Part shown: one piece after another, positions 18,470 through 31,725 of the stretch | How positions within the stretch are numbered: the first letter of the stretch is position 1 | How the letters are laid out: the number at the start of each line of letters is the position of its first letter | Origin: Deltaproteobacteria bacterium | GTDB taxonomy: Bacteria > Desulfobacterota > GWC2-55-46 | Assembly: GCA_016218095.1 (NCBI GenBank) | Contig: JACREV010000004.1 | Coordinates: forward strand, 1 to 32,887 | Direction: 5' to 3' | DNA length: 32,887 nucleotides | The notes under the pieces: generated by a model | Databases searched by the model: none | Seen by the model: only the letters and a program-made list of their open reading frames with translations | What the model was told of the DNA's origin: nothing | Translations under genes and position numbers: made by a program

Positions 18470-18611
18470 CTGAAATTGTCAACATTATTCAGGAGATAAA
18501 TTGTTTAAAACCCTTGACAAACGCCCGCACTGATAGTACAAATTATTAATAGGTAGTAAAGTATAAAAAATATAACTCCCTGGCCTCAAGGCCCCTCCAC
18601 GGTGCGCACCT

Positions 18612-19235
18612 GTGCGGAAGCCCCTGAAAGATAAAGCCTGTCTCCTCTTTTTCGCGTTCTTCTCTGCGGTAACGCTCGCAGGTTGCGGCGGCATGGCCGA
18701 GGACCTCGACACCCTCATAAACGCGGACGTCACGAAAAAGGTCGACGAGAAAGCGAACCTCGACGACTACTACGAGAAGTTCTACAAAGAGGTCGCACGA
18801 AGGTCGCACATCAAGCCCGGCACCTCCGATATAAAGGCCCTCGACTCGCTCCCCAAGGACCCATCGGGCAACGTCAACTGGACCGCGGCAGTGGTAAACG
18901 GCTATATAAACCCCAGGGGCTCTCTCGACCCGGGCGTCCCGGAGGACCAGCCGCTTAACTTGAACATTTTCATAGAGGCCAAGGTCCCTCTCATGGCGAA
19001 TGTCCTCTTCCCGCACTCGATACACACCTACTGGCTGAGTTGCAACAACTGCCACCCGAAGATATTCATACCCGAGGCGGGCGCGAACCCGATCTCCATG
19101 GACGAAATATTCAAGGGCCAGTGGTGCGGCAGGTGCCACGGCAAGGTCGCCTTCACCTTCTGGCCGAGGGAGAACTGCGTCAGGTGCCACATTGTATTGA
19201 AGGGGCAGTCCCTCGAGAGGGAGACCTTCAAGTAG
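18612..19235 (+). CDS. Lipoprotein with C-terminal triheme cytochrome c7-type domain
   Basis: Lipobox TLAGC. Three CXXCH motifs (CNNCH, CGRCH, CVRCH) within ~60 aa, preceded by FPHSIH as in c7/c3-type modules. GTG start. Confidence 0.75.
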   Translation: MRKPLKDKACLLFFAFFSAVTLAGCGGMAEDLDTLINADVTKKVDEKANLDDYYEKFYKEVARRSHIKPGTSDIKALDSLPKDPSGNVNWTAAVVNGYINPRGSLDPGVPEDQPLNLNIFIEAKVPLMANVLFPHSIHTYWLSCNNCHPKIFIPEAGANPISMDEIFKGQWCGRCHGKVAFTFWPRENCVRCHIVLKGQSLERETFK

Positions 19236-19434
19236 GGGCATTCCTGGCCGGTGCCCTTCGGAAACTATTGAGCAAGGATCAGGCAAAATCATCTTGATAT
19301 GAACTTTGCCGGTCCGGCAAGGACTCCTTGACTTTGACGGATTCAGCATAGTATCATTTTAAGGTTGGTAAGGCCCGGGAAGATTCCGGAAGACGCATAA
19401 ACAATAATACTACACAACAAGGAACGAGTCCGAC

Positions 19435-20472
19435 ATGAAGAAGATATTCAAGGTTCTCGTCACAATCGCCCTTCCCATTCTGATATACGGTTGCGCCGCG
19501 CCGCCGTTGCCGGACCTCTTATGGCCCGAACCCCCGGACGAGCCCCGGATAAAATATATACGGGACTTTCGCGGCGGAGCTGACTTCAAAAAAGGCTCGG
19601 CGGCGGTCGAAATTCTCCTCGGCGGCGAGGGCGGCGGCTCCCTTAAAAAGCCGATGGGCGTCCATACCGACATAAAGGGCAAGATTTATGTGACCGACAC
19701 CGCGAACGCCGACGTCTACATCTTCGACACCGTAAACATGACCGGCACGAGCCTCGCGGCGATGGGCGCCAAGCTCTTCTACAAGCCCATAGGCGTCGCC
19801 ACGGACGTAAACGGCAGGATATACGTCTCCGACTCCCAGACCGACACTGTGACGGTCGTCGACCAGACCGGCAAGATCGTCGGGAGCCTCGCCCCGGACC
19901 AGCCCTTCAAACAGCCGAGCGGCATCGCCTCGGATTTCGAGCGCAAGCGGATATATGTAGCCGACACGCACACGCACAACATCAAGGTATTCGATACCGA
20001 GACATTGAAGCACATAAACACTATCGGCAAGAGGGGCAAGGAGGAGGGCGAGTTCAACTTCCCGTCCTTTCTCACCGTCGACCCTAATGGCAACCTCTAC
20101 GTAGTCGACACCATGAACGGCAGGGTCCAGATATTCGATTCAGAGGGCAAGTTCATACGGGCCTTCGGCCAGTTCGGGGACGCGCCCGGGATGTTCGCTA
20201 GACCCAAGGGCATAGGCGTTGACAGCGAGGGGCATATATACGTCGTGGACGCGGCCTTCAATAACATCCAGATCTTCAACGAAGAGGGGCAGATACTCCT
20301 CGCGTTCGCCTCCTACGGGAGCGACAGGGGGCAGATGATCCTGCCCGCCGGCCTCTCGGTCGATAAGGACGACTATATATATGTAGTAGACTCCTGGAAC
20401 AGGCGGGTAGAGAAGTTCGAATACCTCGGGGACAAGGCGAAGGCGAGGACGAGCGTGAGCCCCAAGAAGTAA
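19435..20472 (+). CDS. Six-bladed NHL-repeat beta-propeller lipoprotein
   Basis: Lipobox LIYGC. Six repeats of the form P.G(I/V)..D..G.IYV.D..N..(I/V).(I/V)F(D/N). Confidence 0.85.
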   Translation: MKKIFKVLVTIALPILIYGCAAPPLPDLLWPEPPDEPRIKYIRDFRGGADFKKGSAAVEILLGGEGGGSLKKPMGVHTDIKGKIYVTDTANADVYIFDTVNMTGTSLAAMGAKLFYKPIGVATDVNGRIYVSDSQTDTVTVVDQTGKIVGSLAPDQPFKQPSGIASDFERKRIYVADTHTHNIKVFDTETLKHINTIGKRGKEEGEFNFPSFLTVDPNGNLYVVDTMNGRVQIFDSEGKFIRAFGQFGDAPGMFARPKGIGVDSEGHIYVVDAAFNNIQIFNEEGQILLAFASYGSDRGQMILPAGLSVDKDDYIYVVDSWNRRVEKFEYLGDKAKARTSVSPKK

Positions 20473-21122: not shown

Positions 21123-21150
21123 TTGACAGCCGTTAATATAAGAGTATAAT
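21123..21150 (+). promoter_or_regulatory. Strong sigma70-type promoter for the first tetraheme cytochrome gene
   Basis: TTGACA (21123-21128), 16-nt spacer, TATAAT (21145-21150). An A/T-rich UP-like tract lies immediately upstream. Confidence 0.65.
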
Positions 21151-21341: not shown

Positions 21342-22232
21342 ATGAAAAGGTTTCTCGCAGTCGCAGTAGCGGTCGCCTCGATAGGCTTCCTCACCGCCGG
21401 AACAGCTTCAGCCGTTGACACCTACGCCGCTGGCGATGCCGCATCAGGCATAGCCTCGGCGAGGCATAACCTCGGCGGTTTCTCGATGCACATAGGCGCC
21501 GTGGGCACAACCGAAATCTGCGTATTCTGTCACACGCCTCACCACACCAACACCGCCAACAACCTTAGGCCGATGTGGAACAGGGGCACCTCTGCTCCGA
21601 CCTCCTTCACCGCCTACGGCACGACGATCGCGGGCACCACGATCGCCAACACCGACATCGGCTCGACCTCGCTTGCTTGCTTGAGCTGCCATGACGGCGT
21701 AACCACCTTCGACAACCTCGTCAACGCCCCTGGTAAGTCCGGCATAACCACTGGCGGTACGGACCGTGGCTACACCTTCTATGACTTCGGCACAGTCGTC
21801 TCCGACTTCATGACCTCCAGCAGGTTGAACATCGGCCTCAACCTCTCCAACGACCACCCGGTCTCCGTGACCTACAACGCCGGGACGGCCGCGGGCTTGA
21901 GGGCCACCAACACGACCATCAGCGCGATCGACCTTACCTCTGAGCTCAACACCTCTGCCACGACCTACGACAACGGCAACCTCACCAAGAACCTCTGGGC
22001 GGTAAAGGGCTTCGTCTCCGACACGGCGACGATCGCTGACCTCCTCAGGTCCGGCAAGGTTGAGTGCTCCAGCTGCCACGATCCGCACTTCAACAACAAG
22101 TCTTGGCAGGAAATCGACTCCACCTACTCGAACGTGACCGCGGACCAGGAAGCTGAGTCCAACGGCCTGTTCATCAGAAGGGTCGGCGGCAACACCGGTT
22201 CTGGCGTATGCAGAACCTGCCACGAGAAGTAA
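21342..22232 (+). CDS. Secreted tetraheme c-type cytochrome, paralog 1
   Basis: Signal peptide (..TAGTASA/VD). Four CXXCH motifs: CVFCH, CLSCH, CSSCH, CRTCH. RHNLGG...EICVFCHTPHH resembles the doubled-CXXCH family. AAAGGAG Shine-Dalgarno. Confidence 0.88.
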   Translation: MKRFLAVAVAVASIGFLTAGTASAVDTYAAGDAASGIASARHNLGGFSMHIGAVGTTEICVFCHTPHHTNTANNLRPMWNRGTSAPTSFTAYGTTIAGTTIANTDIGSTSLACLSCHDGVTTFDNLVNAPGKSGITTGGTDRGYTFYDFGTVVSDFMTSSRLNIGLNLSNDHPVSVTYNAGTAAGLRATNTTISAIDLTSELNTSATTYDNGNLTKNLWAVKGFVSDTATIADLLRSGKVECSSCHDPHFNNKSWQEIDSTYSNVTADQEAESNGLFIRRVGGNTGSGVCRTCHEK

Positions 22233-22268
22233 AAACCGCTCGGTCGCAAGACCGAATCGGATAAAAAA

Positions 22269-22301
22269 GAAGGGCCGGGAAACCGGCCCTTCTTTTTTTT
22301 T
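22269..22301 (+). terminator. Strong Rho-independent terminator after paralog 1
   Basis: GAAGGGCCGG-GAAA-CCGGCCCTTC followed by T9. The A-run upstream makes it potentially bidirectional. Confidence 0.85.
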
Positions 22302-22344
22302 GCCTCCATACCCTCCCCCCTCTCCTGAAGGCGCAATCGCCTCC

Positions 22345-22372
22345 TCGACAACCGCATTTCCTGATGTATACT
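22345..22372 (+). promoter_or_regulatory. Sigma70-type promoter candidate for paralog 2
   Basis: TCGACA (22345-22350), 16-nt spacer, TATACT (22367-22372). Confidence 0.45.
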
Positions 22373-22471
22373 CATCTATGTTGGGATAGAAGCCTCAAAA
22401 CCGGGAAAAGGAGGTAAAAAAAGCCGATCCGACCGATAGGCTGACGGTATTCAACCTGAGAGGAGCAACTC

Positions 22472-23362
22472 ATGAGATATTTGAGAGCTGTTACCCTTTT
22501 GGCCGTCTCAGTCTGCATCCTTTCCGCAGCCGCCGCGGAGGCCCTTGACACCTACCTGGCCGGAGACGCCGCGACCGGCATAGCCGGTTCCAGGCACAAC
22601 CTCGGCGGCCTCTCCATGCACATAAGCTCGCAGGCGACCACCGAGATCTGCGTATTCTGCCACACGCCCCACCACACGAACACTACGAACAACATGAAGC
22701 CTATGTGGAACAGGTCCGCGCTCTCCATCACGAGCTTCACCGCCTACGGCACGACCGCCTCTTTCTCGACCATTTCCAACACCGACATAGGCTCCGTCTC
22801 GCTCGCGTGCCTCTCCTGCCACGACGGCGTCACCACCTTCGACAACATCGTGAACGCGCCCGGCAGGGGCGGGGTCACCCAGGGGGGGTCCGACCGAGGT
22901 TACGAGTTCCTCTTAACGGGGATCCTCGTCTCCGACTTCATGACCGCGTCCCGGCTCGTCGTAGGCGTAGACCTCTCGAACGACCACCCGGTCTCCGTCC
23001 TCTATCTCGCGGGCACTGCCGCGAGCCTCCGCCCGACGAACACGACCATCAGCCAGATAGACATCACGGCCGGCCTGAACGTGACCGCGATTTCATTCGA
23101 CAACGGCAATATGAGAAAGAACCTCTGGGCCATAAAGGGGTTCATCTCCGACCAGGCAACTATCGCGGACCTGCTCCGGAACGGCAGGGTCGAGTGCTCC
23201 TCGTGCCACGACCCGCACTTCAACAACAAGTCATGGCAGGAGGTCGACTCGACCTACACTACCGTCGCCGCATATCAGGAGGTGGAATCGAACGGCCTTT
23301 TCCTCCGCAGAGTAGGCGGCAACACGGGTAGCGGGCTTTGCAGGACGTGCCATAACAAATAG
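22472..23362 (+). CDS. Secreted tetraheme c-type cytochrome, paralog 2
   Basis: Same length (296 aa) as paralog 1 and collinear with it. Roughly two-thirds or more of residues are identical by eye. Same four CXXCH positions. GAGGAG Shine-Dalgarno. Confidence 0.88.
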   Translation: MRYLRAVTLLAVSVCILSAAAAEALDTYLAGDAATGIAGSRHNLGGLSMHISSQATTEICVFCHTPHHTNTTNNMKPMWNRSALSITSFTAYGTTASFSTISNTDIGSVSLACLSCHDGVTTFDNIVNAPGRGGVTQGGSDRGYEFLLTGILVSDFMTASRLVVGVDLSNDHPVSVLYLAGTAASLRPTNTTISQIDITAGLNVTAISFDNGNMRKNLWAIKGFISDQATIADLLRNGRVECSSCHDPHFNNKSWQEVDSTYTTVAAYQEVESNGLFLRRVGGNTGSGLCRTCHNK

Positions 23363-23418: not shown

Positions 23419-23447
23419 AGGGGGCCGGTCCGGCCCCCTTTTTTTTT
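23419..23447 (+). terminator. Strong Rho-independent terminator after paralog 2
   Basis: AGGGGGCCGG/CCGGCCCCCT palindrome followed by T9. Confidence 0.85.
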
Positions 23448-23655
23448 GCCTTCCCCCTTTGCCGCCCCTTTCAAGCCAAAGCGGCTTTCCCCGTAAGTTA
23501 AAATTTTTTAATAATCGCATAATCGTCATTTTAAGCTGAAAATATAGAATGTACCCCGGGGGACGCTTAACCTCCCCTGAAGATAAGATTTTAGATTTAT
23601 TATTTATTTCCGTTATATTATAATAGCCAATCAATAAACCCCGGAGGTCCAAAAA

Positions 23656-24651
23656 ATGTCAAGCTTCTCAAAAAGGCTCTTCGCCGCGGCCGTCTTTGTC
23701 GCGCTCCTCGCCCCGGCGTCGTTCGCGGCCAATTCGCCGACGGACGTGATCGCAAAGGTCAACGGAAAGACCATAACGAGGGAGAACCTGGATACCGCCA
23801 CGAACAACCTCCTGCCCCTCATGACATATCACCAGTCGGTCTCCGACGAACGGATGAGGGAGATACAAAAGCAGGCGCTCGAGAAGCTCATAAACAACGA
23901 GCTCATGTACAAGGCCGCCGTCGACTCCAAGCAGGCCGACGTAAATCCGAAGGAAATAGAGGCGAGGGTAAAGGACCTCAAGAAGAAGCTCCCGAAGGGC
24001 GAGACGATCGAGAAGGTCTTGAAGAGAAGCGGGATGACGCTCGCCGACCTCAAGGAGGACTTCAGGAAGGACATGGTCGTCGAGAGGCTGTCAAAGAAAA
24101 CGAACGAAGAGCTCAAGAAACTCTCGGAGAAGACCGTCGACGAGGCGTTCATGAAGGACTACTACCAGAAGAACCTCGCGAAGTTCAAGGAGCCGGAGCA
24201 GATACACTTAAGGTCCATACTCGTCAAGGCCGACCCCTCCGGCGGCCAGAAGGTCTGGAACGAGTCGCTCAAAAAGGCCAAGGAGATAGCCGATAAGGCG
24301 AAGGCCGGAGAGGACTTCGCGAAGCTCGCCGAGAAGCACTCGGAGGACCCGTTCGCTAAAAAGGGCGGCGACATGGGCTGGTCCCACAAGGGCGAGCTCA
24401 TACCTGAGATCGACGACGCCGCCGCGAAGCTCAAGGTCGGCGAGATCGGCGGCCCGGTCATGTCCATCTACGGCTACCACGTTATAAGGCTCGAGGGCAG
24501 CAAGCCCTCAGTGCAGAAGAAGTTCGAGGAGCTCAACAAGGAGAAGCTCGAGAAGGAGCTCGAGGCCAAGGAGTACAAGAAGCTCTGGAACGGATGGCTC
24601 AAAAGCCTGCGCGACTCATCCAAGGTCGAGTACGTCACAATACTAAAATGA
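23656..24651 (+). CDS. Periplasmic PpiC (parvulin)-type peptidyl-prolyl isomerase, SurA/PrsA-like
   Basis: Signal peptide. SurA-N-like helical region. Rotamase core FAKLAEKHSEDP.AKKGGDMGW........PE.....KLKVGEI.GPV.S.YGYH(V/I)I. Confidence 0.85.
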   Translation: MSSFSKRLFAAAVFVALLAPASFAANSPTDVIAKVNGKTITRENLDTATNNLLPLMTYHQSVSDERMREIQKQALEKLINNELMYKAAVDSKQADVNPKEIEARVKDLKKKLPKGETIEKVLKRSGMTLADLKEDFRKDMVVERLSKKTNEELKKLSEKTVDEAFMKDYYQKNLAKFKEPEQIHLRSILVKADPSGGQKVWNESLKKAKEIADKAKAGEDFAKLAEKHSEDPFAKKGGDMGWSHKGELIPEIDDAAAKLKVGEIGGPVMSIYGYHVIRLEGSKPSVQKKFEELNKEKLEKELEAKEYKKLWNGWLKSLRDSSKVEYVTILK

Positions 24652-24701: not shown

Positions 24702-25151
24702 ATGGACAAGAAACTTTTCGTAACGATAGCCGCCGCTTTTGCCGCGCTCCTTTCCGTCTCCGGATGCACCGGAGAGAAGAAGGGGGCTCCCCCGGAAAAG
24801 ACCGCCGCGGAGGCCGCGCCGGCCGTACAGGCCGGCTCCGGCGACCCGGCCTCCGGCAAGGACATCTATTTCAGGTACTGCCACTTCTGCCACGGGCAGA
24901 AGGGCATGGGCGACGGCCCCGTGGGCATAGCCCTCTCCCCCCACCCGGCCGACTTCGTGAACGACGAGAAGAGGATGTCGAAGACCGACGCCGAGCTCTT
25001 TAAATCCATAACAGAGGGGATACACAAGGAGGTCGGCGGAGAAGCGATGTCCATGCCGAGGTGGCAGGAGATATTGTCTGAAAAAGAGAGATGGGACGTG
25101 CTCGCGTTCATAAGACAGTTGGAGCGCGAGGGCAAGACCGCCCCGAAATAA
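24702..25151 (+). CDS. Monoheme class-I cytochrome c lipoprotein
   Basis: Lipobox VSGC. Single CHFCH motif in GKDIYFRYCHFCHG, with a distal-Met candidate in AMSMPRW. Confidence 0.85.
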   Translation: MDKKLFVTIAAAFAALLSVSGCTGEKKGAPPEKTAAEAAPAVQAGSGDPASGKDIYFRYCHFCHGQKGMGDGPVGIALSPHPADFVNDEKRMSKTDAELFKSITEGIHKEVGGEAMSMPRWQEILSEKERWDVLAFIRQLEREGKTAPK

Positions 25152-25176: not shown

Positions 25177-26163
25177 ATGAAAAAACTTCTTGCTTCAGTC
25201 GCCGTATCCCTCTGCGTCATGGCCTCTTCCGCCTTCGGGGCCGCAAGCGACTACGACCCGGTGACAGGCGAGCCCAAGTGCATGGACTGCCATACGCCCG
25301 ACAGGAGGTACTCTACGGATTACACCAGGGACGAGACCTGTGTAGAGTGCCACGGCCCGGGCTTGAGCGACAAATACGTCGATATAAACAACAGGTTCAG
25401 GGAAAGCGCGGAGCTGGGCGAGATAGGCAAATACACCGAGACCGCCGCGGCTTCCGGCAAGGGCGCGGTGAAGGAGGCCGCCCCCAAGGGGATGATACTC
25501 ATCCCGGCCGGGGAGTTCACCATGGGGTCTAACGAATGGTGGCCCAAGAGCCAGCCCGAGCATTCGAGGATGGTCGAGGCCTTTTATATCGACAAGTTTG
25601 AAGTGACGAATGCGCGCTACAAGGCCTTCGTCGACGCCACGGGCTACCCGGCCCCGGACCACTGGAAGGACGGCAGTATCCCCGAAGGCAAGAAGGACCA
25701 CCCTGTCGTATACGTGACATGGAAGGACGCGGACAACTTCTGCAGATGGGAAGGCAAGCGCCTGCCCGATGAGGCCGAATGGGAGAAGGCCGCCAGAGGC
25801 ACCGACAAGAGGACATTCCCCTGGGGCGACAAGTTCGACAAGGAAAAGGGCAACACACCCCAGTACGGGCATGAGGACACGCTCCCGGTCGGGTCCTTCG
25901 AGAGCGGCAAGAGCCCCTACGGAGTCTACGACATGGCCGGCAACGCCTTCGAGTGGACCGACAGCTGGTTCAAGCCCTACCCCGGAAGCACCCACCCGGA
26001 CGAAAACTACGGGGAGAAGTACAAGGTGCTCAAGGGCGGCTCCTGGTACGACTGCACCACATACAAGTGCGGGATAAGCGCCCCGACATACAACAGGATA
26101 TTCTTCCACCCGACCACGAAGAACAACAACTTCGGGTTCAGGTGCGCGAAGGACAAAAAATAA
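25177..26163 (+). CDS. Diheme c-type module fused to a formylglycine-generating-enzyme (FGE/SUMF1) domain
   Basis: Signal peptide. CMDCH and CVECH in the first ~70 aa. FGE motifs MILIPAGEFTMGS, HPVVYVTWKDADNFCRWEGKRLPDEAEWEKAARG, YDMAGNAFEWT, GGSWY and FGFRCA. C-x4-C pair CTTYKC present. Confidence 0.85.
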   Translation: MKKLLASVAVSLCVMASSAFGAASDYDPVTGEPKCMDCHTPDRRYSTDYTRDETCVECHGPGLSDKYVDINNRFRESAELGEIGKYTETAAASGKGAVKEAAPKGMILIPAGEFTMGSNEWWPKSQPEHSRMVEAFYIDKFEVTNARYKAFVDATGYPAPDHWKDGSIPEGKKDHPVVYVTWKDADNFCRWEGKRLPDEAEWEKAARGTDKRTFPWGDKFDKEKGNTPQYGHEDTLPVGSFESGKSPYGVYDMAGNAFEWTDSWFKPYPGSTHPDENYGEKYKVLKGGSWYDCTTYKCGISAPTYNRIFFHPTTKNNNFGFRCAKDKK

Positions 26164-26177
26164 AAGGCCGCGATGAG

Positions 26178-27746
26178 ATGAAAGGAGAAGGCCCGAACAA
26201 ATACCTCGTCTTCACCGCCTTCGCGTGCGGCTCGATCATAATGGTCGTCGAGCTCATCGGCTCAAGGGTAATAGGCCCGCCTTTCGGCGTGAGCCTCTTC
26301 GTCTGGACCTCTCTCATCACCGTAACGCTCGTCTCCCTCGCCCTCGGCTACTGGCTCGGCGGCAGGCTCTCAGATAGGTTCGGGAGCCACGGCGCCCTCT
26401 TCACGGTAATATTCCTCGCAGGGCTCACCCTCATCGCGGTCCCGGTCATAAAAGGGACGGTCATAGGCCTCTCGCTCTCCCTGGGGCTCCGCGTAGGCTC
26501 GCTCGTAAGCTCGACGGCCCTTTTCGGCCCGCCGCTCTTTTTACTCGGCATGGTAGCCCCGTATACCGTAAAACTCTACATGGGCGACGGGAAGGACGGG
26601 ATCGGGAGGACCGTCGGGTGGCTATACGCGGTATCCACCGCCGGGAGCTTCATCGGGACGGTATTGACCGGCTTCATCCTCATACCCAACCTCGGCGTCA
26701 ACAACATCATCTACCTGTCCTCGGCCTCCCTCATCCTCATCGCGGCGGGCTACTGGCTCTTTTTCAGAAGGAAAGCGTACGCCGTCGCCGTCGCGCTCCT
26801 GCCGTTCGGCCTGCTGCTCTTTCCGAAAGACCTCCCGTCGGTCGTGAGGCCGGACGGCACGAACGTCTCCCTCATCGTGAACGAGGACAGCGCCTACGGG
26901 CAGATCAAGGTGGTGGATTACTCCTACGGCGGCCAGTTGATAAGAGAGTTCCTTCTCGAGAACATGATACAGGGCGGGGTCGACATGAAGACCGGCCTTT
27001 CAGTCTCCAAGTACACCTATTACATAGAAAAACTCGCGCGCGCTTACAAGCCGGACGCAAGGCGCGCCCTCGTGATCGGGCTCGGCAGCGGCATAGTCCC
27101 CAACAGGTTCGAGAGGCTCTACGGCATAAAGACCGACGTCGTCGAGATAAACCCGGCTGTCGTGGACGCCGCATCTAGGTACTTCTCCTACGACAGATCG
27201 CTCCACCCCACGTTCATCGAGGACGGCAGGTACTTCCTCAAGGGGTCTACTGAGCCTTACGAGGTAATAGTCCTCGACGCGTTCTCGGGAGACATCCCGC
27301 CGAGCCATCTCATAAGCCTCGAGGCGTTCGAGCTCGTGAGGGGGAGGCTTTCCAGAGACGGGGTCCTTCTCATAAACTTCATAAGTTCGAACGTGCCGGA
27401 GGACCTCGCGGCCCCGGCGTCGCTCCTGCGGACCCTGAAGGAGGTCTTCCCCCATGTCGACGTGTACACATCCGTTGAGTATTCCGACCCGTCGCCGCGG
27501 GTCGTGAACATGCTCTTCGCGGCGACTATGGAGAGGCGCGCAATCGAGGACTCCTACGACGCAGAGGTGCATCCCGGGTACGAGGAGGACGTAAGGACGC
27601 TCCTTGCGAGGAGGATAGATCTTCCTCCCGGGGAGGCGCTTTTTACCGACGATTTCAATCCCGTGGATTTCCAGGACTACAAGACAAGGGAGCGGTTCCG
27701 TTACAGCATAATCTCTGCTTCGGACCGCGCGATCATCCTGGACTGA
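26178..27746 (+). CDS. Fused polytopic membrane domain / spermidine-synthase-fold (class I methyltransferase-like) protein
   Basis: The N-terminal ~200 aa holds multiple TM helices. The C-terminal part has ALVIGLGSGIVP, VVEINPAVVDAA and YEVIVLDAFSGD..PSHL. Start set at ATG 26178, 14 nt after the upstream stop. Confidence 0.8.
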   Translation: MKGEGPNKYLVFTAFACGSIIMVVELIGSRVIGPPFGVSLFVWTSLITVTLVSLALGYWLGGRLSDRFGSHGALFTVIFLAGLTLIAVPVIKGTVIGLSLSLGLRVGSLVSSTALFGPPLFLLGMVAPYTVKLYMGDGKDGIGRTVGWLYAVSTAGSFIGTVLTGFILIPNLGVNNIIYLSSASLILIAAGYWLFFRRKAYAVAVALLPFGLLLFPKDLPSVVRPDGTNVSLIVNEDSAYGQIKVVDYSYGGQLIREFLLENMIQGGVDMKTGLSVSKYTYYIEKLARAYKPDARRALVIGLGSGIVPNRFERLYGIKTDVVEINPAVVDAASRYFSYDRSLHPTFIEDGRYFLKGSTEPYEVIVLDAFSGDIPPSHLISLEAFELVRGRLSRDGVLLINFISSNVPEDLAAPASLLRTLKEVFPHVDVYTSVEYSDPSPRVVNMLFAATMERRAIEDSYDAEVHPGYEEDVRTLLARRIDLPPGEALFTDDFNPVDFQDYKTRERFRYSIISASDRAIILD

Positions 27747-27833: not shown

Positions 27834-28622
27834 ATGCGGTCCGTAAAAAGTTCGGGTTATCTGGCCATTACAGCGCTCGCAATCGCGCTTTTCGGATGCA
27901 AACCGGCTCCTGAGGACATGGTAAAGGTCCCCGGAGGCGAGTTCACGATGGGCAGTAACGAAGTCGACAGGGAGGCGAAGGCCATGCAGTACGGCGACAG
28001 GCGCCCCTGGTACGCGAACGAGAGGCCCGAGAGGAAGATGAAGCTCGGCACGTTCCACATCGACAGGACAGAGGTGACGAACAGGCAGTACAAGGAGTTC
28101 GTCGAAGGCGCAAAACACGCCGCGCCCCCGCACTGGGCTCTCGGCTCGTACCCCGAGAGCCTCGCCGACCATCCCGTGGTGTTCGTGACCTGGAAGGACG
28201 CCGATGAGTTCTGCAAGTGGAAGGGCAAGAGGCTCCCCTCGGAAGCGGAGTGGGAGAAGGCCGCCAGGGGCGCGGACGGGAGGATATTCCCATGGGGCAA
28301 CGACTTCGACATAAAGAAGGTCAACACCATAGGCGAGTACGGCGGCACGGTCCCCGTAGGCACGCTCAAGGACGGGGTGAGCCCCTACGGCGCCTACGAC
28401 ATGTCCGGCAACGCCCAGGAGTGGACGTCCGACTGGTACAAGCCTTATCCCGATAACGAGTTCAAGGACCCGGACTACGGGGAGAAGTTCAAGGTGGTGC
28501 GCGGCGGCGGATGGGGAGGCATGGGCCACTACTCGCTCCAGGTATACGTAAGGGCGCCTTTCAGGAACGCCGCGCCTCCGGAAGGCCGTTACGACGACGT
28601 GGGTTTCAGGTGCGTCTGGTAA
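27834..28622 (+). CDS. FGE/SUMF1-domain lipoprotein lacking the catalytic Cys pair
   Basis: Lipobox LFGC. FGE motifs VPGGEFTMGS, HPVVFVTWKDADEFCKWKGKRLPSEAEWEKAARG, YDMSGNAQEWT and VGFRCV. The region equivalent to C-x4-C reads GGMGHYSLQVY. Confidence 0.82.
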   Translation: MRSVKSSGYLAITALAIALFGCKPAPEDMVKVPGGEFTMGSNEVDREAKAMQYGDRRPWYANERPERKMKLGTFHIDRTEVTNRQYKEFVEGAKHAAPPHWALGSYPESLADHPVVFVTWKDADEFCKWKGKRLPSEAEWEKAARGADGRIFPWGNDFDIKKVNTIGEYGGTVPVGTLKDGVSPYGAYDMSGNAQEWTSDWYKPYPDNEFKDPDYGEKFKVVRGGGWGGMGHYSLQVYVRAPFRNAAPPEGRYDDVGFRCVW

Positions 28623-28879
28623 GTCTCCACGTTTAACGGCGCACGGCGCCTTTTTCAGTCCTTACGGACCGCTCGCCTCCGCCAGACCCGGCGGTCCGGC
28701 CAAAAAAATACACCGCAGGCCTGGCCGGACGGGCAAATCCGTATCGAACGGCTGAGACTTGATTTGCCCCCAAAGGCTCCGTTCGAGACTTTGGCCCTGC
28801 GCCGAGCAGTCGGGAAAAAGAACAATTTTTAGAGGTAGCCTTTAAACAAAGCGTCGGGCCGGGAAAGGACCGCTCTGCC

Positions 28880-30901
28880 ATGCTCCGCAACAAACTGGCG
28901 CTCGTAGCCGCAGTAGCCGCAGTAGCCGCGGGCCTCTTTGCGCCTCAAAGGGGCTATGCCGTCGAAGAGGACCCGTACATCTACAAGTCCCTCGTGGGAC
29001 GGGTCTATTTCGAGTTCGAGGAGGCCGCGACCGAGCAGAACGGCATATCGTCGGATTCGGCCCGCTTCCAGCAGACGTACAGCCTGGACTTCAAGGGAAA
29101 CTTCATGTCCAGGAGGCTCCTCATCTACGACGCGGGGGTCGCATTAACCAACAACGACTATTCATCTAATTCAAGCGACGTCGCTACCCGTACAATCGAT
29201 TATTACCTGCGTACGACCATACTCCCCAAGTCCGGCATACCGCTCACCCTCTACGGGCAGAGGACCGAGGACCAGACGAGTTCATCGGACAGGACCAAGA
29301 CGACATACGGGCTCAACTGGTTCTTGAAGCTCCGCACCCTGCCGCAGACCTCGATCTACGCCGAAAGGGTCCTGTCGGAGTCCGACAGCGTCGATACCGA
29401 GACAGGCAATTACAAGGTGGTCCTTAAAAAGGAGATAGGCCCGACCGAGAACGACGCGGTCATGTCGTTCGCCACGAGCGACTCCTCCGACGGCACGAGC
29501 TCGACGGTAACGACGTTTAACGCGAATAACCTCACGAGGATCTCCAAGAGCACCCAGATCTACGCCGGCGCGACCCTCAGCCGGTCCGCCTCTGACGAGT
29601 CGGATTCGAACACCGATACGAGCCTCGAAGGCTTGAGCCTCCTGCTGAACTCCAAGCCGAGCCAGGACTTCAACCAGAACCACAGGTATGTATACTACAG
29701 GAACAAGACCGACGGGGACGAGCAGATAGGGACAAACTACTCAGGCGACATGGGTTACAGGCTGACGCAGAGGACGGACGCGAACCTCGCCGTGAGCCTC
29801 GGCACCTCCGAGAGCAACTCTTCCACGTCCACGTCCGAGACCGAGTCGCTTGGCGTAAGCGGCGGCATGAACTTCAGGGTCACCGACAACCTGATGGCCT
29901 CGGAATCGGTCTCATATTCGGACTTCAAGTCCAACTCAAACGCCTCGGCGGCTTCCACCGCGGACACGACCACGGATACGACCGATACCACCGACACGAC
30001 AGACGGCACCGATACCGCTACCGACACCTCCGACACCTCCGCCACGACAGGCGACAGGACGACGCTCAGGGCGACCTCCAGGCTCAGCTACTCGAAGATA
30101 TTCTCCCGGGCCGTGCTCGGCGCGGGATGGTCGATCGGCTACATAGAGGACAAGGCCGAGGGGTTCAGGACCGGACAGGGCCTGGAACACAGCGTCAACG
30201 CCTCGCTCGGCAACATAGACGTAAACCGGCACGTGGGTTTCGGCGTCGGCTTCTCGCAATCCGACACATACACGCTCGCGGGAGAGGACATATTCAGCCA
30301 CTCGAAGAACTACAACGCCAACGCCTTCAACAAGACATTGAAGCAGTACGTCCAAATGAACGCAATGTACAACAAGTCGGTCTACGACTCCTATATCGAC
30401 GTGACCGGCACCAGGAGCGAGACATACAGGCTCGACGCCACTTCCGCCTACTTCAAAAACTTCACCCTCCAGGGTTTCGCGGAGCACTCGAGCACCTTCA
30501 GCGGGGTGAGCGGATTCGGCCAGACCGACACAGTCGGGGCCTCCGTCGGGCATAACAGGCCGTTGTTCAAGGGCTCTCTGAACCTCTCGCTCTACTACGC
30601 CCTCATCGACTCCGAATACGAGGGCGGCTCGGACACTATAAGAGACCTGCAGTTCCTCACGCAGTACACTAAAAAATTCTATAACAACCTCAACTGGCAG
30701 GCTACCTTCCGCGTCACCCAGAAGAAGAGCTCGGAATCCGACAAGGACGAGACATCGTTCACCAACTCCCTCACTTATCCCCTGCGGGCCTGGCTCTTAG
30801 GGCTCGAGCAGATGAACTCGTACACGGTCGAGGACACTACCGAGACGAAGGAGGCCTCGATACTCTTCAGGGCCACGAGGGTATTCGTGAGGATATGGTA
30901 A
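28880..30901 (+). CDS. Large predicted outer-membrane beta-barrel protein with an internal Thr/Asp-rich tract
   Basis: Signal peptide. 673 aa, no Cys, S/T/N/Y/D-rich with many alternating amphipathic segments. Ends ...RVFVRIW (C-terminal aromatic residue). Confidence 0.65.
   Translation: MLRNKLALVAAVAAVAAGLFAPQRGYAVEEDPYIYKSLVGRVYFEFEEAATEQNGISSDSARFQQTYSLDFKGNFMSRRLLIYDAGVALTNNDYSSNSSDVATRTIDYYLRTTILPKSGIPLTLYGQRTEDQTSSSDRTKTTYGLNWFLKLRTLPQTSIYAERVLSESDSVDTETGNYKVVLKKEIGPTENDAVMSFATSDSSDGTSSTVTTFNANNLTRISKSTQIYAGATLSRSASDESDSNTDTSLEGLSLLLNSKPSQDFNQNHRYVYYRNKTDGDEQIGTNYSGDMGYRLTQRTDANLAVSLGTSESNSSTSTSETESLGVSGGMNFRVTDNLMASESVSYSDFKSNSNASAASTADTTTDTTDTTDTTDGTDTATDTSDTSATTGDRTTLRATSRLSYSKIFSRAVLGAGWSIGYIEDKAEGFRTGQGLEHSVNASLGNIDVNRHVGFGVGFSQSDTYTLAGEDIFSHSKNYNANAFNKTLKQYVQMNAMYNKSVYDSYIDVTGTRSETYRLDATSAYFKNFTLQGFAEHSSTFSGVSGFGQTDTVGASVGHNRPLFKGSLNLSLYYALIDSEYEGGSDTIRDLQFLTQYTKKFYNNLNWQATFRVTQKKSSESDKDETSFTNSLTYPLRAWLLGLEQMNSYTVEDTTETKEASILFRATRVFVRIW
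29957..30056 (+). repeat. Imperfect ACN-GAY hexanucleotide repeat encoding TADTTTDTTDTTDTTDGTDTATDTSDTSATTGD
   Basis: Direct reading of the sequence. It is a low-complexity insert inside the barrel ORF. Confidence 0.8.
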
Positions 30902-31725
30902 TGACCTCGGGCGCCTCCGGGAACATCCCGACCGATACCTCACCCCTCCCCTCGATCGCCCTTGCGGCGGTCGTCATCGCGCTCGCCTTTATCTCGTTCA
31001 ACAGGAACTCGGTCTGGAAGAGCCCGGAGACCCTCTGGGCGGATGTCGTGGCCAAATCCCCGTCAAAGGCGCGCCCCCATTACAACTACGCGACGGTGCT
31101 TGCCGGAAACGGAGACCTCGACCGCGCGCTCGAGGAGAACTTGAAGGCCATCGAGATATACCCGTATTACGGGAAGGCGTACTTCAACATAGGGGCGATC
31201 TTCCACACATGGGGGAGGGTCGACGAGGCGATAGAGAAGTACGAGATCGCCGTGGCATTGAAACCCGACATAGTAGAAGCGCACAACAACCTCGGGTACG
31301 CCTATTACACAAAGGGCGGATACCAGGAGGCCTTGAGGGAATACAGGACCGCCCTCGGCATGAAACCCTCTCACGTGAAGGCTCGCATAAACCTCGGGTA
31401 TCTTTACAGGGACACAGGCATGCTGGACGAGGCGATCGATGAGTACAGGACGGCGTTAAAGTACATGCCCGATTACGCCGACGCCTACAGGCTCATCGGC
31501 GAGGCCTATCTGCTCAAGAAGGACCCGGCCTCCGCGATAGAGAGCCTGAAAAGGGCGATAGAGCTCGCCCCTTACTCCGCGGAGGCCCACAACGGGCTCG
31601 GCAAGGCGTTCGAGATCTCCGGAGAGCCAAGGCTCGCCTGGGCTGAATATGAAAAAGCCCTCAGCCTGAACCCCGGCCTTCTCGATGCGGGAGAGGGCCT
31701 CCGTCGTCTTGACGGCGCACTTTAG
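30895..31725 (+). CDS. Single-pass membrane-anchored TPR-repeat protein
   Basis: One N-terminal TM (LPSIALAAVVIALAFISF), then about six TPR units (..A..NLGYAY...G.Y.EA...Y..AL...P). Its start overlaps the barrel gene's end (ATG 30895 or in-frame ATG 30901). Confidence 0.85.
   Translation: MVMTSGASGNIPTDTSPLPSIALAAVVIALAFISFNRNSVWKSPETLWADVVAKSPSKARPHYNYATVLAGNGDLDRALEENLKAIEIYPYYGKAYFNIGAIFHTWGRVDEAIEKYEIAVALKPDIVEAHNNLGYAYYTKGGYQEALREYRTALGMKPSHVKARINLGYLYRDTGMLDEAIDEYRTALKYMPDYADAYRLIGEAYLLKKDPASAIESLKRAIELAPYSAEAHNGLGKAFEISGEPRLAWAEYEKALSLNPGLLDAGEGLRRLDGAL

Follow-up and report, generated by a model that had tools for sequence, protein, structure and literature searches.

A gene that joins two c-type heme motifs to a formylglycine-generating enzyme (FGE) fold lies at 25177..26163 of a 32,887-nucleotide stretch of DNA from a Deltaproteobacteria bacterium (GTDB lineage Bacteria; Desulfobacterota; GWC2-55-46; GenBank assembly GCA_016218095.1, contig JACREV010000004.1, positions 1 to 32,887), hereafter the window. 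The gene, here called heme-FGE, is on the + strand, as are all window features described below unless stated otherwise. It starts with ATG and encodes 328 amino acids (aa), which the list of open reading frames (ORFs) and Pfam PF03781 resolve into a signal peptide, a diheme module, a linker and an FGE-fold domain. The N-terminus MKKLLASVAVSLCVMASSAFG, followed by AAS after the cleavage point, reads directly as a Sec-type signal peptide without a lipobox (residues 1-21, ...SSAFG/AAS, 25177..25239), and hydrophobic N-termini are aligned at this position in all homologues. Two c-heme motifs follow, CMDCH (C35-H39, 25279..25293) and CVECH (C55-H59, 25339..25353), and after a low-complexity, variable linker comes the FGE-sulfatase fold domain (residues 104-325, 25486..26151), identified by Pfam PF03781, by Foldseek and by phmmer against the PDB. 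PF03781 matches these residues with E 6.3e-60 over model positions 3-255 of 255; cytochrome matches returned by Pfam for the CXXCH region are all sub-threshold. A first-pass annotation made from the sequence alone had described this same architecture, and the ORF, the Pfam match and the conservation among homologues bear it out.

Within the FGE-fold domain, the segment GGSWYDCTTYKCG carries C293 and C298. These form a C-x4-C pair in a near-invariant loop, GGSWYDCTTYKCGISAP (26035..26085), which was recognized in alignments of homologues and has a predicted local distance difference test score (pLDDT) below 50. Searches of solved structures with phmmer placed human and bacterial FGE at the top (E 4e-33 to 1e-31) and also returned ToxD and CalU17, while Foldseek, queried with an AlphaFold model of heme-FGE, had CalU17, ToxD and human and bacterial FGE as top matches with a probability of 1.0 at about 30% identity. 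NCBIfam matches to EgtB, SenA, GldK and PvdO were all far below the family cut-offs. The model, built with 58 homologues, has a mean pLDDT of 67 and exceeds 90 in the core of the FGE fold. The heme module, a WWPKS motif and the Cys loop are the only invariant segments that AlphaFold cannot place, and it may be that these three fold together around cofactors that are invisible to AlphaFold.

A search of 5.8 billion clusters recovered more than 120 full-length homologues with 57-87% identity from groundwater, sediment and other metagenomes, for which the most precise existing name is "FGE family protein". Of the 120 best homologues, 119 retain the two CXXCH motifs together with the loop GGSWYDCT[TY]YKCGIS[AS]P, and a spacing of 20 residues separates the motifs in all 20 homologues whose positions were determined. 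Conservation was assessed in 62 sequences, including four members of a diverged subgroup that are about 47% identical to the main subgroup. Invariant in all 62 are C35, C38 and H39 of the first heme motif, C55, C58 and H59 of the second, D48 between them, and S289, W290, D292, C293, Y296, C298, G299 and S301 of the loop. This conservation of motifs and loop is far beyond chance.

The heme module appears to belong to this family exclusively. Used as a query against 1.84 billion representative proteins, the 54-residue module gave 17 matches, 13 of which were family members or fragments. Three more (P0132, P0134 and P0135) were ruled out as relatives because they are repeat proteins that lack CXXCH, and the remaining one is a multiheme cytochrome with a weak match (E 3.4e-4). 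The module is therefore not a general cytochrome domain and exists only in front of this FGE-fold domain. The 401 genomes sampled across the phylum include 14 from the window's class, of which 12 carry full-length heme-FGE, as does one genome of another class. Full-text literature searches found neither a published heme-FGE fusion nor FGE-like genes in nanowire clusters, in agreement with the remark in the first-pass annotation that its author was aware of no characterized fusion of this kind. What is probably new here is a family of FGE-fold proteins that has its own diheme module, a Cys pair that is likely convergent, and a fixed set of partners.

The genome from which the window derives encodes three CcsA/CcmC-family proteins for cytochrome c maturation. 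It also encodes several heme-copper oxidases and has a match to a bd-type oxidase, so that O2- or copper-dependent chemistry is compatible with its gene content; O2 and copper both belong to the physiology of this organism. The heme-FGE sequence was present only in groundwater DNA metagenomes, and in no RNA runs.

The Cys loop, canonical FGE and sulfatases

The Cys pair of Streptomyces coelicolor FGE (C272/C277), with C336/C341 as its human counterpart, we take to be copper ligands. The loop of heme-FGE with C293 and C298 sits after the GGS strand, the position that it has in FGE. Two residues of human FGE have kept equivalents in heme-FGE, E130 as E142 and S333 as S289, and the position of W299 is occupied by F258 in this protein and by W in the family consensus. 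In a local alignment with the S. coelicolor enzyme (6MUJ, a copper-bound structure by its title), C293 and C298 fall on its Cys pair with one-residue gaps. HMMER instead brings them into register with C341/C346 of human FGE, and a MAFFT alignment with the closest relatives places them inside an insertion of about six residues shared with the Cys-less paralogue FGE2. The distance from the Ser to the first Cys is one residue longer in heme-FGE, S-x3-C-x4-C, than in FGE, S-x2-C-x4-C. An alignment of the pair with the copper-binding cysteines of FGE, which had been claimed from the sequence, is thus reproduced against 6MUJ and not in the other two comparisons.

A maximum-likelihood tree was built on the C-terminal 170 residues. 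It contains a single bona fide FGE, the human protein, because a search of the 401 genomes of the phylum with a fragment of human FGE returned only Cys-less FGE-like proteins. Heme-FGE is monophyletic in this tree (94/93) and nests inside a clade (95/94) that also holds four Cys-less proteins, FGE2 and a further heme-less paralogue (FGE3). A 99/97 split separates heme-FGE from human FGE, which sits among different Cys-less proteins. When heme-FGE and human FGE were forced into one clade, a group defined after inspection of the tree, the likelihood was 30 log units worse and the approximately unbiased (AU) test gave p 0.0029. The nearest heme-less FGE-like relatives all lack the Cys pair, so that the pair and the hemes always travel together.

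Two gains of the pair require far fewer events than one gain followed by many losses, which favors an independent gain. The Cys pair of heme-FGE was therefore probably acquired independently at the same functional spot and not inherited from canonical FGE, a reading of the sequences that goes against the earlier description of heme-FGE as a protein that "keeps" the pair, a word that implies descent from a true FGE. It is possible that heme-FGE works like FGE; that it is an FGE is not supported.

The genome of the window (2.43 Mb, 90% complete) encodes no sulfatase with a Cys or Ser signature, and a six-frame scan of it found no PROSITE sulfatase signature. It has two matches to PF00884, one of them a cofactor-independent phosphoglycerate mutase and the other a cytoplasmic ABC-ATPase fusion with Thr at the position of the sulfatase Cys/Ser nucleophile. 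Five of 11 complete relatives with heme-FGE contain no PF00884 gene at all, and a CxAxR protein occurs in only one of the 11 (G355), at 327 kb from heme-FGE. Heme-FGE is very probably not a sulfatase-maturing enzyme. The first-pass annotation had seen no sulfatase in the window and no CxPxR motif in the neighboring cytochromes; this observation stands and extends to the whole genome at its 90% completeness, where a CxPxR sulfatase was likewise sought and none was found.

The proteins of the locus do not offer an alternative substrate of the same kind. None of them contains a [CS]x[PA]xR motif, and their cysteines are all heme-binding, lipobox, signal-peptide, membrane-segment or conserved FGE-fold cysteines. 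There is therefore no visible target in the locus for FGE-type oxidation, and the earlier suggestion that heme-FGE may modify a locus-encoded partner finds, for this chemistry, no candidate cysteine.

A fusion with a PF00884 domain (L028; G000:C159:1-1854, minus strand) is a 618-aa ORF cut by the contig end. A Wzt/TagH-like ABC-transporter ATPase, including its C-terminal carbohydrate-binding-like region, is joined there to a sulfatase-fold domain with Thr at the nucleophile position, an unusual architecture for a cytoplasmic protein.

The gene module and its OmcE-type locus

Heme-FGE is closely packed between its neighbors, with gaps of 25 nt on the 5' side and 14 nt on the 3' side. The gene directly upstream encodes a monoheme class-I cytochrome c lipoprotein (24702..25151; Pfam Cytochrome_CBB3 / Cytochrom_C). 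Downstream are a fused major facilitator superfamily (MFS)/spermidine-synthase-like membrane protein (26178..27746; NCBIfam NF037959, 237 bits) and, after it, FGE2 (27834..28622), a heme-less FGE-fold lipoprotein paralogue with 53% identity to the FGE domain of heme-FGE.

Synteny was compared across 26 related loci from species-representative genomes, which comprise "Deltaproteobacteria"/Thermodesulfobacteriota metagenome-assembled genomes (MAGs) and three Nitrospirae MAGs. The cytochrome c lipoprotein adjoins heme-FGE in 26 of 26 loci, directly upstream in all except L019, where it is divergent. FGE2 is found downstream of heme-FGE in every locus whose contig continues, and the same adjacency of cytochrome c, heme-FGE and FGE2 (the trio) recurs in three further loci of the diverged subgroup and two further main-type loci. 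The MFS/spermidine-synthase-like gene stands between heme-FGE and FGE2 in about half of the related loci. An FGE-fold domain wired to c-hemes, as the first-pass annotation proposed, fits the invariant adjacent monoheme cytochrome c gene; the fixed module and the OmcE-type surroundings described below were missing from that account, which is upheld in part.

For the cytochrome c lipoprotein, the best solved structure is 6H5L chain B ("conserved hypothetical cytochrome protein", E 1.2e-12), which outmatches the cbb3 CcoP and Alternative Complex III cytochromes.

The loop of FGE2, GGGWGGMGHYSL, lacks the Ser, the Trp and both Cys of heme-FGE. It has a G-H-Y of its own that is invariant in 30 of 30 orthologues covering the loop (L001-L039, diverged subgroup included), which argues for a functional partner rather than a decayed duplicate. 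Conserved histidines also differ between the subgroups of heme-FGE. H273 (THPDEN) is invariant in the main subgroup and absent from the diverged one (L034-L037), while the diverged subgroup has a GHP histidine directly after the second CXXCH, where the main subgroup has no His. This complementary pattern in the sequences may reflect a distal heme ligand that has been relocated. Distal ligation could come from H273 or the GHP histidine, from C293/C298, or from the histidine of FGE2.

The wider gene order is conserved as well. It begins with a triheme lipoprotein, an NHL propeller lipoprotein, one or two tetraheme cytochromes (296 aa) and a SurA-like peptidyl-prolyl isomerase (PPIase), continues with cytochrome c, heme-FGE, the MFS/spermidine-synthase-like protein where present, FGE2, a 673-aa Cys-free protein and a TPR protein, and ends with a HEAT protein on the opposite strand. 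The tetraheme neighbors match OmcE filament structures (7TFS, E 8.6e-16; 9YUQ, E 2.8e-12). OmcE homologues are present in all eight relatives with main-type heme-FGE, and G379, of the same family, has neither main-type heme-FGE nor OmcE and carries FGE-only genes. The main-subgroup module travels with the OmcE locus also in another class (L038) and in Nitrospirae (L021 and L024), and this shared travel across lineages argues for a functional link in those lineages.

Several OmcE-like paralogues occur in each of the genomes G222, G331, G355, G060, G280, G130 and G307. Some of these genes give two separate matches, one for the N-terminal and one for the C-terminal half, and some OmcE-like proteins are about 760 aa long with an N-terminal part that resembles the first half of OmcE. 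GSU2494/GSU2495 were considered as Geobacter counterparts and rejected, as GSU2495 is a 26-heme cytochrome without an FGE fusion.

The diverged subgroup shows the module on its own. Four complete genomes with diverged heme-FGE have no OmcE homologue at E 1e-5, and the function of the core module can therefore not be filament-specific. The unit there consists of cytochrome c, heme-FGE and FGE2, followed by FGE3 where the contig continues (three of four loci). Beyond these four genes no neighbor is conserved among the loci of the diverged subgroup, and the surroundings differ from genome to genome. The presence of the module alone in OmcE-free genomes indicates that it can stand by itself and that it predates its association with the filament locus.

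In L034 (G097:C2, 2428-8219 and 8585-11451), the diverged unit is convergent to a CusCBA-type resistance-nodulation-division (RND) efflux system, and a GT39-like glycosyltransferase and a PAP2 protein lie in the same neighborhood. No CusCBA homologue was found in the stretches of DNA covered for the other three diverged-subgroup loci, which leaves the copper link a weak lead.

In the window, the locus is headed by a triheme c7-like lipoprotein (18612-19235), with the motifs CNNCH, CGRCH and CVRCH and a lipobox, and an NHL six-bladed propeller lipoprotein (19435-20472), recognized by its NHL repeats and by synteny. The longest ORF over the triheme gene is an antisense one (18546-19349, - strand); it has no family match and is spurious, and the + strand triheme gene is real. 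Two paralogous 296-aa tetraheme cytochromes homologous to OmcE follow (21342..23362), each with four CXXCH motifs. Each of these two genes has its own promoter-like site, a perfect TTGACA-16-TATAAT at 21123 and one scoring 10/12 at 22345, and a strong terminator at 23419-23439 after the second separates the subunit genes from the accessory operon.

That terminator stands upstream of a SurA-like PpiC-type prolyl isomerase assigned by Pfam (23656..24651), the first gene of the predicted operon, with promoter-like sites at 23523 and 23590 between the two. A terminator-like hairpin after FGE2 (28638..28650) closes the unit. The hairpins at 23419-23439 and 28638-28650 thereby bracket the genes for PPIase, cytochrome c, heme-FGE, the MFS/spermidine-synthase-like protein and FGE2. 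The 673-aa Cys-free exported protein, a candidate outer-membrane barrel, and the TPR protein lie beyond it in conserved synteny (28880..31725). The 673-aa protein had no match in Pfam, NCBIfam or the PDB.

Proposed function and rival explanations

Our leading reading, to which we give about an even chance, is a composite drawn from sequence. Heme-FGE would be a redox protein with a Cys2 centre, binding copper or forming a disulfide, that is wired by cytochrome c, works with FGE2 as a non-catalytic partner, and serves as a filament accessory in this organism. It would be a soluble periplasmic protein in which some 45 N-terminal residues form a module with two covalent c-type hemes and a linker tethers the FGE fold. 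In the conserved gene module heme-FGE is the central member, accompanied by the monoheme cytochrome c lipoprotein and by FGE2 alone or FGE2 and FGE3, both of them heme-less lipoproteins with the FGE fold. The lipoprotein cytochrome c would exchange electrons with the two hemes, and these in turn with a redox centre that the invariant Ser-x3-Cys-x4-Cys loop would provide at the face of the FGE fold where the active site lies. A Cu(I) bis-thiolate like that of FGE is one form that this centre could take, a reversible disulfide the other. FGE2 would anchor the assembly to the membrane or regulate it, in a pairing like that of pFGE/SUMF2 with FGE/SUMF1. In the window's organism and its close relatives, the module would be a redox accessory that helps either to build the filament or to bring in electrons at the periplasmic side of the outer membrane.

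In a bolder form that we hold to be doubtful, the trio would constitute a new class among periplasmic oxidoreductases, with the FGE fold as its basis. Hemes would be wired to a convergent Cys2 centre, either a copper-thiolate or a His/Cys heme, which a histidine-bearing pseudo-enzyme would complete or regulate, and in lineages with OmcE the trio would be a nanowire biogenesis or electron-entry factor. Handling of an unsatisfied heme or histidine at the filament end, or chemical modification of a filament subunit, is a possibility for what the trio does.

Several points weigh against the redox-accessory reading. The heme module, the WWPKS motif (121-125) and the Cys loop (287-307) have pLDDT below 50, and for this reason the geometry from the hemes to the cysteines is not readable from the AlphaFold model. 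The three alignments give three registers for the Cys pair relative to the copper ligands of FGE, which makes homology at the level of residues ambiguous. Apart from the CXXCH histidines, neither His nor Met is conserved in the main-subgroup heme module, and no substrate of heme-FGE was identified. The OmcE-free genomes with diverged heme-FGE count on the same side, and so does the fact that omcE clusters of Desulfuromonadia work without an FGE-like gene (PMC13712944). Heme attachment, copper binding and any activity of heme-FGE are likewise predictions.

The invariant cysteines may have a different partner. If C293 and C298 were the distal axial ligands of the two c-hemes, heme-FGE would carry low-potential His/Cys hemes docked on the FGE face, as in SoxAX, TsdA and NaxLS, and would be a cytochrome that reacts with or senses sulfur compounds or small molecules, with the FGE fold as its scaffold. 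The two hemes are matched in number by two invariant cysteines, the pair is found only in the heme-bearing members of the clade, the main-subgroup heme module offers no other conserved His or Met, and the poorly modeled invariant segments are what would be expected if they co-fold around cofactors. Still, this proposal has to compete with H273, the GHP histidine and the invariant FGE2 histidine as ligands, and it would leave the retained Ser, Trp and Glu equivalents of the FGE active site superfluous; we regard it as unlikely. A non-enzymatic role of the FGE-fold domains appears equally unlikely to us. They would then be a scaffold, as PorK/GldK is, that assembles under the outer-membrane protein of the locus, and the hemes would extend a path to the base of the filament. 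An FGE2 lipoprotein of the same fold is adjacent in every locus reaching that far downstream, the relation to PorK/GldK is detectable (PDB 9MZU, E 5.7e-16; NCBIfam GldK, 110 bits), and three lineages have inherited the locus together with OmcE, the NHL propeller and the 673-aa protein. The trio could also take the place of the second multiheme cytochrome and the second propeller of the published omcE cluster, both of which are missing here (PMC13712944). However, the GldK score of 110 falls short of the cut-off of 350, heme-FGE is closer to enzymes (FGE at E 4e-33, CalU17, ToxD) than to PorK, and the module also occurs in genomes without an OmcE homologue. That Ser/Cys-x4-Cys and, in FGE2, G-H-Y are strictly invariant points to chemistry or a bound cofactor and not to packing alone.

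Copper handling in the periplasm is an explanation that we find quite improbable. A high-affinity Cu(I) bis-thiolate coupled to the hemes would oxidize, reduce or hand over copper, either to shield the maturation of cytochromes c in a periplasm rich in cytochromes or to supply copper to oxidases. Canonical FGE binds Cu(I) through C-x4-C (structures 6MUJ, 5SSZ and 6S07, by their titles), the organism has several heme-copper oxidases, the module is present in 12 of the 14 genomes of the class whether OmcE is there or not, and in one diverged locus (L034) a CusCBA-type efflux system stands beside it. That system is convergent, though, and was not found in the DNA covered for the other three diverged loci; the module is not linked to any further copper genes, and copper binding itself is only predicted. 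To a genuine FGE we assign a very small probability. The protein has the full fold with the Ser, Cys-x4-Cys and the Glu and Trp equivalents, its fused hemes could supply the two reducing equivalents, and its substrate would be a sulfatase or other CxPxR protein encoded elsewhere. We know of no established physiological reductant of FGE, so a built-in donor would make sense. Against it stand the lack of Cys- or Ser-signature sulfatases and of six-frame PROSITE signatures in the 90%-complete genome, the five complete heme-FGE genomes without PF00884 and the single CxAxR protein in G355, 327 kb away, the tree and AU test that set the family apart from human FGE, and a spacing from the Ser to the first Cys that is one residue longer.

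Comparison with known systems

The FGE fold has been put to several other uses. To our knowledge, neither covalent hemes nor a loop Cys pair is present in PvdO, in the C-terminal domains of EgtB, OvoA and SenA, in CalU17, in ToxD or in PorK. PvdO (5HHA), the EgtB/OvoA/SenA domains, CalU17 (6VQP) and ToxD (7SPQ) resemble heme-FGE in having the same fold with a chemistry that is not directed at sulfatases. The likeness to PorK/GldK, a ring lipoprotein of the type IX secretion system (9MZU), is one of location, as an FGE fold at the periplasmic face of the outer membrane near a large outer-membrane component. Unlike PorK/GldK, heme-FGE has no lipobox, and the GldK model that it misses is TIGR03525 (110 bits against a cut-off of 350).

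FGE/SUMF1 itself (EC 1.8.3.7; human 1Y1E, S. coelicolor 6MUJ, T. curvata 6S07) shares with heme-FGE the fold, the Ser and C-x4-C after the GGS strand, and the equivalents of E130 and W299. Heme-FGE differs from it in being exported, in having two c-hemes in front, in the lack of a genomic sulfatase substrate and in being nested among Cys-less proteins. FGE2 relates to heme-FGE as pFGE/SUMF2 (1Y4J) relates to SUMF1, being a Cys-less close paralogue encoded alongside, and the heme-FGE loop aligns with that of SUMF2 without gaps. In contrast to SUMF2, FGE2 is a lipoprotein with an invariant G-H-Y of its own, and its physical pairing with heme-FGE is a prediction. For FGE enzymology, the family provides a natural FGE-fold domain in which a Cys pair of the catalytic loop, apparently independent of that of canonical FGE, is joined to hemes. 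It may thus bear on how easily the FGE fold gains a thiolate redox centre and on what could donate electrons to such centres.

Cytochrome nanowires (OmcS, OmcE and OmcZ) are widespread, and much about their assembly, anchoring and electron supply has yet to be explained. OscH of the omcS-companion (osc) cluster is reportedly a PPIase, and the locus in the window also has a prolyl isomerase. The osc cluster is that of Shen et al. 2025, as cited in PMC13194489. The minimal omcE cluster of Desulfuromonadia consists of two multiheme cytochromes, two propeller lipoproteins, OmcE and a large barrel (PMC13712944). The locus described here resembles the OmcE clusters of this group (the G. sulfurreducens GSU0618 region; D. 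soudanensis, PMC13712944) in its OmcE-type tetraheme, propeller lipoprotein, multiheme lipoprotein and large exported downstream protein. As an OmcE-type cluster with an extra, strictly conserved redox module that is absent from the Geobacter and Desulfuromonas models, it makes the trio a concrete candidate for lineage-specific machinery of filament biogenesis or electron input in uncultured groundwater bacteria. By comparison, neither an FGE-like gene nor the trio nor an MFS/spermidine-synthase protein is listed for the published OmcE clusters (PMC13712944).

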